In this document: positions 9,428 to 16,140 of the stretch, piece after piece
Numbering within the stretch: position 1 is the stretch's first letter
Layout: each line of letters opens with the position of its first letter
Assembly (NCBI GenBank): GCA_964584075.1
Contig: CAZOYV010000002.1
Coordinates: 3,769-67,768, forward strand
DNA from: an uncultured Rickettsiales bacterium
Lineage (GTDB): Bacteria; Myxococcota_A; UBA796; UBA9615; CAYRNR01
Length of the DNA: 64,000 bases
Reading direction: 5' to 3'
Notes under the pieces: model-generated
What the model was told of the DNA's origin: nothing
What the model saw: only the letters and a program-made list of their open reading frames with translations
Databases searched by the model: none
Made by a program: the position numbers and the translations under genes

Positions 9428-10894
9428 ATGTCGGAGAGGGGCGAGGGACGCCACGCAGCGCAGGGGACCATCGAGTCGGTCCGCGGCGGGGTGGTGCGTG
9501 CCCGCTTCCCGGGGCGGCTGCCGGGGCTGTACCACCACCTGCAGACCACGGGCGAGCGGCCGGTGCACCTCGAGGTGGTGACCCAGGCCGACGAGCACAC
9601 GGTGGTCGGCATCGCGCTGAACCCCACCCGCGGGCTGGCCCGCGGCGAGGCGGTGGTCGACCGCGGAGGCCCGCTGCGGGTGCCCGTCGGCGACGACACC
9701 GTGGGGCGCATGTTCGACGTGTTCGGCGAGACCATCGACCGGCGCGAGGAGCGGGTGGAGGGGCGGCGTCGCTCGATCCACCAGCCCCCGGTGCCGCTGC
9801 CCCAGCAGACCACCCGCGAGGAGGTGTTCGAGACCGGGATCAAGGTCGTCGACGTGCTCGCGCCGCTGGAGCGGGGCGGCAAGGCCGGGCTGTTCGGCGG
9901 GGCCGGGGTGGGCAAGACGGTGCTGATCATGGAGCTGATCCACGACATGGCCGCGCGCCACGAGGGCGTCAGCGTGTTCTGCGGGATCGGCGAGCGCTGC
10001 CGCGAGGGCGAGGAGCTGTACCGCGAGCTGCAGGAGGTGGACGTCCTCGACGAGACGGTGCTGGTGTTCGGCCAGATGGACGAGCAGCCGGGGGCGCGGC
10101 TGCGGGTCGGGCACGCGGCGCTGACGATGGCCGAGCACTTCCGCGACGAGCAGGGCCGCGACGTGCTGCTGCTGATCGACAACATCTTCCGCTTCATCCA
10201 GGCGGGGATGGAGGTCTCGGGGCTGATGGGGCGCCTGCCCTCGCGGCTGGGCTACCAGCCCACGCTGGCCACCGAGCTGGCCGAGCTGCAGGAGCGGATC
10301 ACCAGCACCGAGCGCGGGGCGATCACCTCGGTCCAGGCGGTGTACGTGCCCGCCGACGACTTCACCGATCCCGCGGCGGTGCACACCTTCGGGCACCTGT
10401 CGTCGTCCATCGTGCTGTCGCGGGACCGGGCCAGCCGCGGGCTGTACCCGGCGGTCGATCCGCTGCGGTCGAGCTCCAAGATGCTGACGCCGCCGGTGGT
10501 CGGCGAGCGGCACTACCGCGTGGCCCAGGCGGTGCGCCGCACGCTGGCGGAGTACGAGGACCTGAAGGACATCATCGCGATGCTGGGCATCGAGGAGCTG
10601 TCGGCGGACGACCGCGCCACGGTGCGCCGCGCGCGGCAGCTGGAGCGCTACCTGACCCAGCCGTTCTTCGTCACCGAGGCGTTCACCAACAAGCGCGGGC
10701 GCGCGGTGGAGCTCGACGAGGCGCTGTCGGGCTGCGAGCAGATCCTCGACGACCGCCACGCGGACGCTCCGGAGCAGGCGTTCTACATGATCGGCCGCGT
10801 GGGCGAGGCCGACGTCGACGGCGAGGGCGAGGCCGACGACGACGGCGAGGGCGAGGCCGACGACGACGGCGAGGGCGAGGGGGGTGACGGATGA
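9428..10894 (+). CDS. atpD: F-type ATPase beta subunit, of the N-ATPase type.
   Basis: Motifs [10 protein letters not shown] (P-loop), DELSEED-region and [26 protein letters not shown] at 9428 with a GGAGAGG RBS is preferred over the GTG at 9413. It has a C-terminal acidic Gly/Asp-rich tail. Its stop overlaps the atpC start. Confidence 0.9.
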
Positions 10895-11274
10895 GGGTGC
10901 GGGTGCTGCTCCCCGACCGGGTGCTGCTGGACCGCGGGGCCGACGCGCTGGTCGCCGAGGGCCGCGACGGCCACCGGGGGCTGCGCCCGCGCCACCAGGA
11001 CTGCGTCCTCCCGCTGGTGCCCGGGGTCCTGTCGCTCCGGGGCGGCGACGAGGGCGAGGCCCACGTGGCGGTGGCCGGCGGGGTGCTGGTCAAGCGCGGC
11101 GAGACGGTCACGGTCTCGGCCCGGGACGGGGTGGCGGGGACGGAGCTGGAGCAGCTGCAGCGCGTGGTGCGCGAGCGGCTGGCGGCGCGGGACGAGGACG
11201 AGCGCCGGGCGGATTCCGCCCTGGCGCGGCTGGAGGCGAGCTTTGTGCGCCGCTTCTTCGAATGCGGACCCTGA
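10891..11274 (+). CDS. atpC: ATP synthase epsilon subunit.
   Basis: 127 aa, with a beta-sandwich N-terminus and a helical C-terminus. It immediately follows atpD with an ATGA overlap. Gene order matches N-ATPase operons (beta-epsilon first). Confidence 0.8.
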
Positions 11275-11332
11275 GCGGCGGCGGTCGCCCGAGCGGCGGG
11301 GGACGCCCCGCGGGGACGACCTGGAGCAGGTC

Positions 11333-13688: not shown

Positions 13689-15220
13689 GCGCGGCGCCCG
13701 CCGACCTGCGGGGCGGCACCGCGGAGGTGCTCGCCGCCCTGGGCGAGGCGCTCGACGCGCGCGACCCGCGACCCGAGCTGCGCGAGGCCGGGACCCTGAC
13801 GCGGGTGGGGGAGGGGATCGCGCTGGTGGACGGGCTGCCGGGCTGCCGCGCCGACGAGCTGCTGCGCTTCCCCCGCGGGGTGCGCGGGCTGGCGTTCAAC
13901 CTGGACCCCGGCCGCATCGGCGCGATCCTGCTGGACGACCACGCCGGGCTGCGGGCCGGCGACCGGGTGCGGCGCTCGGGGGCGGTGCTGGACGTGCCGG
14001 TGGGCGAGGGCCTGCTGGGCCGCACCGTGGACGCCCTGCTGCGGCCGCTGGACGGCGGCGGACCGGTGCACGCCGACGAGCGCTCCCCGGTGGAGCGCGA
14101 GGCGCCGGCGATCATGGATCGGGCGCCGGTGACGGTGCCGCTGGTGACCGGGATCAAGGCCGTCGACGCGATGGTCCCGATCGGCCGCGGGCAGCGCGAG
14201 CTGATCCTCGGCGATCGGCAGACCGGCAAGACCGCCATCGCCGTGGACACGATCCTCAACCAGCGCGGCGAGGGCGTGCGCTGCGTGTACTGCGCCATCG
14301 GCAAGCGCTCCGCGGCGGTGGCCAAGGTGGCCGCCGACCTGCGGCGCGGCGACGCGCTGCCGTACACCGCGCTGGTGGTCACCACCGAGGAGGACCCCCC
14401 GGGGCAGCGCTACGTGGCGCCCTTCGCGGCGATGGCGGTGGCGGAGTGGTTCCGCGACCGGGGCCACGACGCGCTGGTGGTGCTCGACGACCTGACGCGC
14501 CACGCCCGCGCCTATCGCGAGCTGTCGCTGCTGCTGCGCCGCCCGCCGGGGCGCGAGGCCTACCCCGGCGACATCTTCTACCTGCACTCGCGGCTGCTGG
14601 AGCGCTCGACCCACCTGCGCGACGAGCTCGGCGGCGGCTCGCTGACCGCGCTGCCGATCATCGAGACCGAGGCGCAGGACATCTCGGCGTACATCCCGAC
14701 CAACCTGATCTCCATCACCGACGGGCAGATCTACCTGTCGCCGGAGCGGTTCCAGAAGGGCGAGCTGCCCGCCATCGAGATCGGGCGCTCGGTGTCGCGG
14801 GTGGGGGGCAAGACCCAGCTGCCGGCCTACCGCGGGATCGCCGCGGACCTGCGGCTGAGCTACGCGCAGTTCGAGGAGCTGGAGTCGTTCTCGCGGTTCG
14901 GCACCCGCCTGGACGACGAGACCCGCCGGCGCCTGCACCGCGGCCGCCTGGTGCGCGAGGTGCTCAAGCAGGACCAGTACGACCCGATGACCGTGCCCCA
15001 GCAGATCGCGGCGCTGTTCGCGGTGGGCGACGGCCTGCTCGACGACCTCGAGCCCGAGGCCGTGCGGCCGCTGGAGCGGCGGCTGCGGCGGCGGGTCGAG
15101 GATCGCCTGTCCGACTGGGGCGAGCGGGTGCTGGCCGGCGAGGAGTCCACCGAGGCGGACCTGGACGCGCTGCGCGAGCTGGTCGACGAGCTGGTCGACG
15201 AGGATCCGGAGACCGGCTGA
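13685..15220 (+). CDS. atpA: ATP synthase alpha subunit.
   Basis: GTG start at 13685 overlaps the atpF stop as GTGA. P-loop [11 protein letters not shown] and the alpha-subunit core are present. The 174 codons upstream in the ORF-track entry 13163..15220 lie in another frame relative to atpF and were rejected. Confidence 0.9.
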
Positions 15221-16140
15221 TGGCGACACTGGAGCAGCTGCGGGGGCAGATCGAGAGCACCGGCGAGCTGCGCTCGGTGGTCAAGACGATGAAGGCCCTC
15301 GCCGCGGTGCACATCCGCCAGTACGAGCGGGCGGTGGACGCCCTGCGCGAGTACGAGCGCAACGTGGAGCGGGGGCTGCAGATCGTGCTGCGCCAGCTGC
15401 CGCCCGACGCGCTCGCCGCGTGGGACCCCGGCGGTGGCGCGGTGGTGGCGGTGGTGCTGGGCAGCGACCAGGGGCTGGCGGGCCCGTTCGACCAGCGGGT
15501 CGCCGCCCGCGCCGCCTCGGTGTTGCGGCCGCGGGTGGAGCAGGGCGACACGCTGCGCCTGCTGGCGGTGGGCGAGCGGGTGGCGGGGGCGCTGCGCCAG
15601 GAGGGCCTGCCGGTCCACGAGCGCCGCGAGCTGCCGCGCTCGCTGGAGGGCTTCCCCGCCGCGCTGGGCCGGCTGCTGCCGTGGATCGAGGACACCCGCG
15701 AGGCGATCGACGCCGGCGAGGTGGTGGTGCTGTTCAACCGCCCCGCGTCGGGCGCCTCGTTCCGGGCCACCGCGCGCTGGCTGTGGCCGCTGGACCCGCG
15801 GCGGCTGCGGGAGCTGCGGCGGAGGTCATGGGAGGGCGGCAGCGAGCCGGTGGCGCTCGGCGACCGCCGCGCGGTGCTGCGCGACCTGGTGCTGGAGTCG
15901 TTCCACGTCCTGCTCCACGGCGCGCTGGCCGCCTCGCGCGCCGCCGAGAACGCCAGCCGGATCGCCTCGATGCAGGCCGCCGAGGACAACATCGAGGCGC
16001 GGCTCGAGGAGCTCGACGCCCGCTTCCGCCACTCGCGCCAGAGCCAGATCACGTCCGAGCTGCTGGACATCGTCTCGGGCTTCGAGGCGCTGCGCGAGCC
16101 CGGCGGGGAGGACGGGGAACGCGGGTCGACCCCGCCGTGA
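15220..16140 (+). CDS. atpG: ATP synthase gamma subunit.
   Basis: Start [29 protein letters not shown] overlaps the atpA stop as TGATG. It has conserved gamma N- and C-terminal helices (ENASRIASMQAAEDN). Confidence 0.8.
   Translation: MATLEQLRGQIESTGELRSVVKTMKALAAVHIRQYERAVDALREYERNVERGLQIVLRQLPPDALAAWDPGGGAVVAVVLGSDQGLAGPFDQRVAARAASVLRPRVEQGDTLRLLAVGERVAGALRQEGLPVHERRELPRSLEGFPAALGRLLPWIEDTREAIDAGEVVVLFNRPASGASFRATARWLWPLDPRRLRELRRRSWEGGSEPVALGDRRAVLRDLVLESFHVLLHGALAASRAAENASRIASMQAAEDNIEARLEELDARFRHSRQSQITSELLDIVSGFEALREPGGEDGERGSTPP

Follow-up and report, generated by a model that had tools for sequence, protein, structure and literature searches.

The locus holds nine plus-strand open reading frames, atpD-C-Q-R-B-E-F-A-G, which span positions 9428 to 16140 of the window, i.e., the whole 64-kb stretch of DNA analyzed here; the ORF map (Table 1) bears out the complete operon of the original prediction, both in gene order and in coordinates. 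The junctions between the genes range from −32 to +22 nt, with start/stop overlaps at three of them: the atpC start and the atpD stop overlap by 4 nt, the GTG start of atpA overlaps the atpF stop, and the ATG of atpG and the atpA stop have one base in common. GGAGG-like motifs precede most of the start codons. In each of the nine genes GC3 lies between 0.92 and 1.00; hence, these are real coding frames rather than chance ORFs of a sequence with 75% GC. None of them shows frameshifts or internal stops, and the catalytic and ion-path residues (the P-loops, Arg164 of the a subunit and Glu63 of the c subunit) are intact. Just as had been predicted, there is no separate delta (atpH) gene among the nine; no coding room is left between them, nor was a separate OSCP-family ORF found.

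Table 1. Genes and bordering features of the atp operon, in window coordinates
Feature	Position	Strand	Models or remarks
atpD, N-type beta subunit, 488 aa	9428..10894	+	TIGR03305, PF00006
atpC, epsilon subunit, 127 aa	10891..11274	+	TIGR03166, PF02823
atpQ, small membrane protein ('gene 1')	about 11243..11590, start uncertain	+	TIGR02230, PF09527
atpR, N-ATPase hallmark membrane protein, 100 aa from ATG	11611..11913	+	PF12966
atpB, a subunit, 223 aa	11923..12594	+	TIGR03306, NF004481
atpE, c subunit, 88 aa	12617..12883	+	TIGR03322, NF009998
atpF, long b subunit, 264 aa	12894..13688	+	TIGR03321
atpA, N-type alpha subunit, 511 aa, GTG start	13685..15220	+	TIGR03324, PF00006, PF00306
atpG, gamma subunit, 306 aa	15220..16140	+	TIGR03323, PF00231
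Terminator-like GC hairpin, then TTTTGT	16153..16167	+	13 nt past the atpG stop
Divergent intergenic region, SufC-like gene / atpD	9279..9427	.	promoter role inferred

The core subunits were assigned to the N-type as against the F-type by profile-model scores. The NCBIfam "alternate F1F0 ATPase" model set (TIGR03305, TIGR03166, TIGR02230, TIGR03165, TIGR03306, TIGR03322, TIGR03321, TIGR03324 and TIGR03323) provides the top match for seven of the nine proteins, namely beta, AtpQ, AtpR, a, b, alpha and gamma. It comes a close second for epsilon (alt_F1F0_F1_eps, 124.8 bits with a cut-off of 100.1, marginally under the 126.2 of an NF-series F0F1 model) and c (alt_F1F0_F0_C, 147.3 bits with a cut-off of 130.85, slightly under the 150.0 of NF009998, F0F1 subunit C). 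For alpha, beta, gamma, epsilon, a, b and c these models clearly outscore the general TIGR F-type models: beta scores 749.7 bits with alt_F1F0_F1_bet vs 615.8 with TIGR01039 (atpD), alpha 741 with alt_F1F0_F1_al vs 603 with TIGR00962 (atpA), gamma 250.7 with alt_F1F0_F1_gam vs 114.4 with the generic gamma model, a 286.1 with altF1_A vs 95.6, and b 241 with alt_F1F0_F0_B (residues 1–245, cut-off 224.7) vs 50, while the general model gives epsilon 33.9. Five of the alternate models fall just below their strict 'exception' cut-offs: those for beta (752), alpha (750.5), a (302.1), gamma (282.35) and AtpR (55.1 bits, marginally under 55.5). The a subunit passes NF004481 (268 vs a cut-off of 227), AtpR passes PF12966 (60 bits, cut-off 26), and AtpQ matches TIGR02230 (ATPase_gene1) over residues 15–110 with 115.8 bits (cut-off 46.7) and PF09527 with 55 bits; among the possible atpQ starts, only a TTG at 11243 leaves room for the whole of the family match.

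The expected motifs are found in the catalytic head, with the P-loops GGAGVGKT at residue 157 of beta and GDRQTGKT at residue 176 of alpha, and, further along beta, GERCREG at 188 and EELSADD at 389. The C-terminus of beta also bears an unusual acidic tail, the product of an in-frame 24-nt tandem repeat at 10797–10880, which is extra in comparison with the N-ATPase family. In the membrane sector, the a subunit has the essential stator Arg164 in AVRLFGN, and AtpR has an arginine in each of its predicted second (AVTRLAV) and third (LVARVVL) transmembrane segments, both of which align with those of relatives. The top Pfam match of the C-terminal 139 residues of b is to OSCP positions 106–172, albeit below threshold (E 0.0011, 19.5 bits against 22.3), which weakly suggests a delta-like end, as in the b–delta fusion of the N-ATPases.

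The N-ATPase family was delineated by Dibrova, Galperin and Mulkidjanian in 2010 as atpDCQRBEFAG, an order identical to that of the window. Its distinguishing features recur here: the conserved gene order, an atpR with basic transmembrane residues, an atpQ between atpC and atpR, the long b subunit and the absence of delta. Taken with the alternate-F1F0 models, these make the original assignment to the N-ATPase cassette well supported, and the operon is an intact member of this already described N-type (alternate F1Fo) ATPase family. The same order, D-C-Q-(R)-B-E-F-A-G, is common to nearly all of 65 related loci.

It is in the c subunit that the operon departs from the family norm. Its ion site is made up of Gln30, Met61 (via the backbone), Glu63, Ser64, Phe65 and Tyr68. 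A glutamate in the middle of both c-subunit helices is typical of N-ATPases, though not strictly defining, and the helix-1 glutamate is present in 'nearly all' of them; in the window this place is taken by Gln30, and the family motif ESTxxY is replaced by ESFxxY. The strings AQG and MIESFAIY, which had been quoted exactly from this protein, were originally read as the ligand set of a Na+-binding c ring. When the alignment to I. tartaricus suggested along with that reading was run, it proved gap-free, and judged by the Na+ motif of Mulkidjanian 2008 and Meier 2009 the reading holds for Gln30 (position 32), Glu63–Ser64 (Glu65–Ser/Thr66) and Tyr68 (Tyr70). However, it fails at position 67, where the expected residue is polar (Ser, Thr, Gln or Arg) and the hydrophobic Phe65 lies opposite Thr67 of I. 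tartaricus. The O-gamma of this threonine holds the water molecule that serves as fifth Na+ ligand (Table 1 of PMC3692424), and every enzyme predicted to use Na+ has a polar residue here (PMC2359735). According to a published rule, the absence of even one ligand goes along with lost Na+ specificity (PMC2881411, PMC2359735, PMC11738941); with the polar water-holding residue missing at Phe65, the site would be classed as H+ by the ProAD rule. Hence, as the c site lacks the residue that positions the Na+ water ligand, we consider H+ more likely than Na+ as the coupling ion.

The competing reading, of an N-ATPase that exports Na+ under salt stress and binds it by Gln30, the Met61 carbonyl, Glu63, Ser64 and a backbone-held water, appears unlikely but deserves to be weighed. 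In its favor, the motif's Gln, Glu, Ser and Tyr are conserved at the positions that correspond to I. tartaricus, the original description of the family portrayed it as predominantly Na+-translocating (PMC2881411), and the N-ATPase of Aphanothece halophytica has been shown to be Na+-coupled, as a passage in PMC5376962 has it. The phenylalanine in place of the water-anchoring threonine speaks against it, and the helix-1 glutamate, which Dibrova et al. proposed as a possible compensation for a missing threonine in N-ATPases, is absent as well. Moreover, increased hydrophobicity of the site shifts selectivity towards H+ (PMC7594442, PMC3692424), and the window shows no sign of a saline habitat. 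The notion that N-ATPases are 'usually' Na+ extruders, on which the original prediction drew, is itself outdated: among the 1807 N-ATPases counted in ProAD 2025, 893 are predicted to translocate H+ vs 914 for Na+ (PMC11738941). Separately, we note that the window c subunit has lost just one of the motif's five side chains and retains the other four (Gln30, Glu63, Ser64 and Tyr68), and residual or promiscuous Na+ binding may persist.

The window c subunit shares features with several c-rings of known structure or selectivity. The enzyme of B. pseudomallei (Schulz et al. 2017; c17 ring) comes from the same type of operon, and its stator arginine even carries the identical number, Arg164 (PMC5376962). 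Its c subunit (Glu30, Glu61, Thr62, Met63, Tyr66) is H+-selective by NCD-4 labelling and is the sole N-ATPase c-ring with a hydrophobic residue at the Thr67-equivalent position that has been tested for ion selectivity (PMC5376962). The position is hydrophobic in both, Met63 there and Phe65 here, an analogy that favors H+ for the window enzyme. The sites differ in that the B. pseudomallei one holds a pair of carboxylates (Glu30 and Glu61) and a threonine at +1 where the window has Gln30 and Ser64; B. pseudomallei is also an example of an N-ATPase for which sequence-based ion prediction has failed before. The Na+ c11 rings of I. tartaricus and Fusobacterium nucleatum (1YCE, 3ZK1), which match the window c subunit at 43% identity across 69 residues, belong to F-type enzymes, unlike the N-type operon studied here; their Gln32, Glu65, Ser66 and Tyr70 are kept as Gln30, Glu63, Ser64 and Tyr68, but Thr67 has become Phe65 and the water-holding side chain is missing. 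The top full-length, single-hairpin PDB matches are the H+ rings of Spirulina platensis (c15, 2WIE, E 2.6e-19) and the chloroplast (c14, 4MJN, E 1e-17), which share with the window a helix-1 glutamine, a single glutamate, a hydrophobic +2 residue and a +5 tyrosine. They differ in having alanine at +1 in place of serine, and in forming part of primary H+ ATP synthases, which possess a delta subunit.

The helix-1 glutamine is not peculiar to the window: column counts at the ion site in a MAFFT alignment place it in at least 26 homologues other than the window's own among the 120 matches listed, and in 11 of the 65 GTDB loci; hence, it is a known minority state of N-ATPase c subunits. The loci that combine it with ES(F/M/L)xxY (L002, L003, L006, L007, L012, L013, L016, L021, L023, L025 and L062) lie in MAGs of Thermodesulfobacteriota, Thermoanaerobaculia, Ignavibacteriales, KSB1, Planctomycetota and Desulfobacca. 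They share the operon and ion-site chemotype of the window, with c subunits 74–80% identical, and three of them (L002, L007 and L023) are its nearest neighbors in alpha and beta; yet they come from other phyla, lack the window's flanking genes and have a subunits at most 65% identical to it, no a subunit above that value having been found in the GTDB scan. The glutamine class does not form a single clean clade: in a crude NJ tree of alpha and beta, its operons lie at several places beside Glu/Thr operons. We tentatively raise the idea, on which we would not yet wager, that Gln with Glu-Ser-Phe/Met/Leu might be a distinct and repeatedly evolved N-ATPase state, in which the second carboxylate and the water-holding threonine would be lost in functional coupling, marking a change from Na+ (or Na+/H+) to strict H+ pumping. 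If so, the window enzyme would be one natural example of the switch, and sister operons of the E/T and Q/F kinds (e.g., L004 vs L007/L023, or L014 vs L013/L016) would provide a ready-made natural experiment bearing on c-ring ion selectivity. The co-variation of the helix-1 residue with the Thr67-equivalent position is a small lead for work on that subject.

On its upstream side the operon is divergent from a pair of genes that had been called sufCD. An ABC-ATPase/SUFBD-core pair does lie there, but its scores are far below the sufC and sufD cut-offs; the pair is SUF-like only and the label is a loose one. Downstream of atpG, the predicted bcs operon is present as bcsQ-A-B-Z(GH8)-C, after a gap of 578 nt that begins with the terminator-like hairpin. 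This is the only such site in 9000–17000, compared with a mean of 0.7 in shuffles, which is weak on its own, and it likely marks the end of the operon. No sigma-70 consensus was found in the upstream intergenic region and no Rfam match in 9200–16800. None of the 65 loci has the flanking CitMHS, VTT, SUFBD-like or BcsQ/A/B genes beside its N-ATPase operon, generic ABC matches being the only ones; a functional link to the neighboring genes was rejected on this lack of recurrence. Likewise, composition gives no signal of recent transfer, with GC (0.69–0.78 per gene) and GC3 matching the flanks. The presence of BcsC, TamB and Omp85 indicates that the host is a diderm; the housekeeping-type TreS-Mak protein of the window is at most 64% identical to those of MAGs of mixed phyla.

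That the operon might be a cassette acquired by horizontal transfer that is now silent or in decay and serves no function is scarcely credible. One could point to the recently expanded tandem repeat at the 3' end of atpD, and to the frequent lack of a phenotype when N-ATPase operons were deleted or studied in other hosts, as in M. acetivorans, where deletion left growth and ATP synthesis unaffected (PMC2881411). However, the repeat is in frame, the genes are free of frameshifts and internal stops, the functional residues are conserved, GC and GC3 are host-like in all nine, and translational coupling and SD-like motifs are kept. Somewhat less far-fetched, though still highly improbable, is the view of the operon as an unusually ordered F-type enzyme that serves as the only or primary rotary ATPase of the organism and works as its ATP synthase. 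All subunits and catalytic residues are indeed intact, and the 64-kb window holds no other ATPase, which says little; there is also the precedent of the Chloroflexota genus T78, whose sole rotary ATPase is of the N-type (PMC11738941). T78 is an exception: in surveys of thousands of genomes, N-ATPases almost always occur alongside an F- or A-type enzyme (PMC2881411, PMC11738941). Further, the operon sits among non-core genes (the SUF-like pair and those for making cellulose), and its relatives turn up in diverse phyla, a scatter expected of a mobile accessory cassette.

We therefore favor, with reasonable though far from complete confidence, an N-type ATPase that acts as an accessory enzyme in ATP-driven ion export, with H+ as the likelier ion; the accessory status would follow from family precedent, with which the M. 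acetivorans deletion cited above agrees (PMC2881411). In the mechanism we envisage, the alpha3beta3 head would hydrolyze ATP and turn gamma–epsilon together with the c ring against the a subunit at Arg164, while the single long b, with its putatively delta-like end, would form the stator stalk. AtpQ and AtpR may be small membrane accessory or assembly factors, and the export of ions would proceed next to a primary ATP synthase whose genes would lie elsewhere. The finding itself is ordinary, a complete, textbook-order copy of a known operon type, and matters little beyond correct annotation as an N-type (alternate) F1Fo ATPase, predicted to be H+-coupled. The operon should be labelled neither the cell's ATP synthase nor a Na+ pump; the correct label keeps sodium bioenergetics or halotolerance from being wrongly ascribed to an uncultured, high-GC diderm bacterium.

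At about 75% GC from end to end, the window is rich in long spurious ORFs. Nine ORFs form an unbroken forward-strand series across 9428–16140, with third-position GC of 0.92–1.00, intergenic spacings of −32 to +22 nt, start/stop overlaps at three junctions and GGAGG-like motifs 5' of most gene starts. A GC-rich hairpin and then TTTTGT follow 13 nt after the atpG stop, and the series leaves no room anywhere for a delta gene. The composition of the operon is that of its flanks, and hence offers no sign of recent acquisition.

Features of the window with coordinates and strands
Feature	Position	Strand
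SUFBD-core protein, short, 308 aa	7588-8514	-
SufC-like ABC ATPase	8511-9278	-
atpD	9428-10894	+
atpC	10891-11274	+
atpQ	about 11243-11590	+
atpR	11611-11913	+
atpB	11923-12594	+
atpE	12617-12883	+
atpF	12894-13688	+
atpA	13685-15220	+
atpG	15220-16140	+
atpG-bcsQ gap, 578 nt	16141-16718	
bcsQ-bcsA-bcsB-GH8-bcsC, complete cellulose synthesis operon, then 1056-aa protein	16719-30323	+
Molybdopterin oxidoreductase, 1211 aa	within 37371-44371 (+) / 48237-54681 (-)	
Nitrate-reductase-gamma-like domain fused with Rieske domain, 479 aa	within 37371-44371 (+) / 48237-54681 (-)	
TamB/Omp85 (TamA-like) pair	within 37371-44371 (+) / 48237-54681 (-)	
TreS-maltokinase fusion and GlgE genes, alpha-glucan pathway	57874-63781	-

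The top NCBIfam matches of beta, AtpQ, AtpR, a, b, alpha and gamma are all models of the "alternate F1F0 ATPase" (N-ATPase) family; for epsilon (124.8 versus 126.2 bits) and c (147.3 versus 150.0 bits) the alternate model is a close second to an NF-series F0F1 model. The margins over the general TIGR F-type models are wide for beta (749.7 versus 615.8 bits), alpha (741 versus 603) and gamma (250.7 versus 114.4). The curated cut-offs are cleared by epsilon, AtpQ, c and b; beta (749.7/752), alpha (741/750.5), a (286.1/302.1), gamma (250.7/282.35) and AtpR (55.1/55.5) fall slightly under thresholds of a very strict "exception" type. Pfam independently recovers AtpR (PF12966, 60 bits) and the AtpQ family (PF09527), and AtpR carries an Arg within each of predicted membrane segments 2 and 3, as the family description requires (PMC2881411). 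The top Pfam match of the last 139 residues of the 264-aa b subunit is the C-terminal third of delta/OSCP (sub-threshold, E 0.0011), agreeing weakly with the b–delta fusion reported in N-ATPases (PMC2881411, PMC11738941). The catalytic and ion-path residues are intact: the P-loops of beta (GGAGVGKT) and alpha (GDRQTGKT), c Glu63, and a Arg164 (in AVRLFGN), identical in number to the essential Arg of the Burkholderia pseudomallei N-ATPase (PMC5376962).

When the a subunit was searched against GTDB, with each species represented by a single genome, 65 related loci came back, nearly all in the order D-C-Q-(R)-B-E-F-A-G. They are spread over Thermodesulfobacteriota, Thermoanaerobaculia, Ignavibacteriales, KSB1, Planctomycetota, Chloroflexota, Burkholderiales and numerous genomes of Methanothrix, and a patchy occurrence of this kind, across domains, is what has been described for the laterally mobile N-ATPase cassette. 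Taken together, the model scores, AtpR and AtpQ, the length of b, the absence of a delta gene and the gene order shared with relatives make membership of the N-ATPase family a well-supported assignment. The original prediction was right on this point, and the ORF map and translated c subunit confirm where it placed the genes, the order it gave and the c-subunit strings it quoted. One peculiarity of the operon is a 24-nt tandem repeat at the 3' end of atpD (10797–10880; 3.5 copies, 96% matches), which encodes an acidic beta-subunit tail. It is absent from all 53 related beta subunits compared, most of which extend no more than about 12 residues beyond the conserved YMIG motif; three (L013, L016 and L018) have low-complexity tails unrelated to it.

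The c subunit aligns gap-free to that of Ilyobacter tartaricus, a Na+-binding F-type ring, and also to the solved rings; the I. tartaricus sequence used matches 1YCE and the literature in its length of 89 aa and its residue numbering. Residues Gln32, Val63, Glu65, Ser66, Thr67 and Tyr70 of I. tartaricus correspond to Gln30, Met61, Glu63, Ser64, Phe65 and Tyr68 in the window. Na+ rings have five Na+ ligands, the fifth being a water held by the Thr67 O-gamma and the Ala64 carbonyl (PMC3692424, Table 1), and all predicted Na+ enzymes have a polar residue at the Thr67 position (Mulkidjanian et al., PMC2359735). Under the rule of Dibrova et al. and the ProAD survey, loss of any one ligand implies H+ (PMC2881411, PMC11738941). 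Dibrova et al. also raised the possibility that an N-ATPase without this Thr could retain Na+ binding, its helix-1 Glu giving two ligands (PMC2881411), a rescue not applicable here because the residue is Gln. The B. pseudomallei N-type ring (Glu30, Glu61, Thr62, Met63, Tyr66), H+-selective by NCD-4 labelling (PMC5376962), is likewise hydrophobic at the position of Thr67, and more hydrophobic sites favor H+ in general (PMC7594442). From these considerations H+ would be about twice as probable as Na+ as the coupling ion, though not certain. The Na+ coupling originally proposed draws on the four of five motif side chains that are still present (Gln30, Glu63, Ser64 and Tyr68), and earlier sequence-based ion calls in this family have proved wrong; nevertheless, with Phe65 in place of Thr67 and no helix-1 Glu, that proposal was overstated.

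Among the 120 best c homologues, which include the window's own sequence, a helix-1 Glu accompanies ES-Thr in 90 and ES-Ile/Leu/Val in four; a helix-1 Gln accompanies ES-Thr in four and ES-Phe in 22 (21 without the window's own). At the 65 GTDB loci, the second residue after the essential Glu (+2) is Phe, Met or Leu in all 11 Gln-type c subunits and Thr in none, and in the Glu-type it is Thr in 26 and Ile/Leu/Val in 28 (Fisher test for association, p = 0.002, relatedness ignored). On a crude neighbor-joining tree of alpha plus beta, the window falls among Gln/Phe operons (L002, L007, L023) from Thermodesulfobacteriota and Thermoanaerobaculia, with a Glu/Thr operon (L004) nested among them, and other Gln-type operons branch elsewhere. 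From the motif counts and this scatter, the two positions seem to covary, perhaps through several separate changes. In the window and in the AtpR ORFs of loci L002–L066, AtpR keeps an Arg in TM2 and an Arg/Lys in TM3 whether c has two Glu or one carboxylate (Gln class); this does not fit the proposal (PMC2881411), taken strictly, that the two arginines of AtpR pair with the two glutamates of c. Separately, the N-type c subunit HSO23793.1 (locus L005, DATIVB010000485.1, "Chondromyces sp." MAG) is 137 aa long, and in the alignment roughly one hairpin segment appears to be duplicated within it (helix 1, loop and start of helix 2 occur twice); the duplication may be genuine or an artefact of assembly.

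The divergent 5' neighbors are an ABC ATPase and a SUFBD-core protein. The pair falls far under the sufB/sufD/sufC/SmsB cut-offs (SufC, 160 bits against 212.8; SufD, 40.5 against 222; SmsB, 57.5 against 650), so the earlier label "sufCD", correct as to a divergent pair of these two kinds, is too specific; the pair is only SUF-like and may represent a divergent minimal two-gene system. Downstream, the atpG–bcsQ gap has no Rfam or Pfam match, nor does a 130-aa ORF reaching past it (16352–16744, GC3 0.86) have one in Pfam. In the ensuing bcs operon BcsA combines GT2 and PilZ, GH8 is an endoglucanase, and the 1056-aa protein after it joins seven MopE-like metal-binding repeats to a GH9 cellulase domain and CBM3. 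As none of the window's flanking genes recurs beside N-ATPase operons elsewhere, their adjacency looks incidental. Farther along, the TamB/Omp85 (TamA-like) pair confirms that the host, of about 75% GC, is a diderm. For the TreS-maltokinase/GlgE region, identity to the best homologues, mixed-phylum MAGs among them, reaches only about 63%, so that the collections searched contain no close sequenced relative of the host lineage.

No other rotary ATPase lies within the 64-kb window. There is a documented genus in which the N-ATPase is the only rotary ATPase (ProAD, PMC11738941), but in nearly all cases an N-ATPase accompanies an F- or A-type ATPase as a second enzyme, and it is very improbable that this operon encodes the primary one. 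This is a predicted H+-coupled N-type ATPase that fits the known family: since ProAD already predicts H+ for about half of N-ATPases (893/1807, PMC11738941), its Gln/hydrophobic ion site is inside the range already known for the family.
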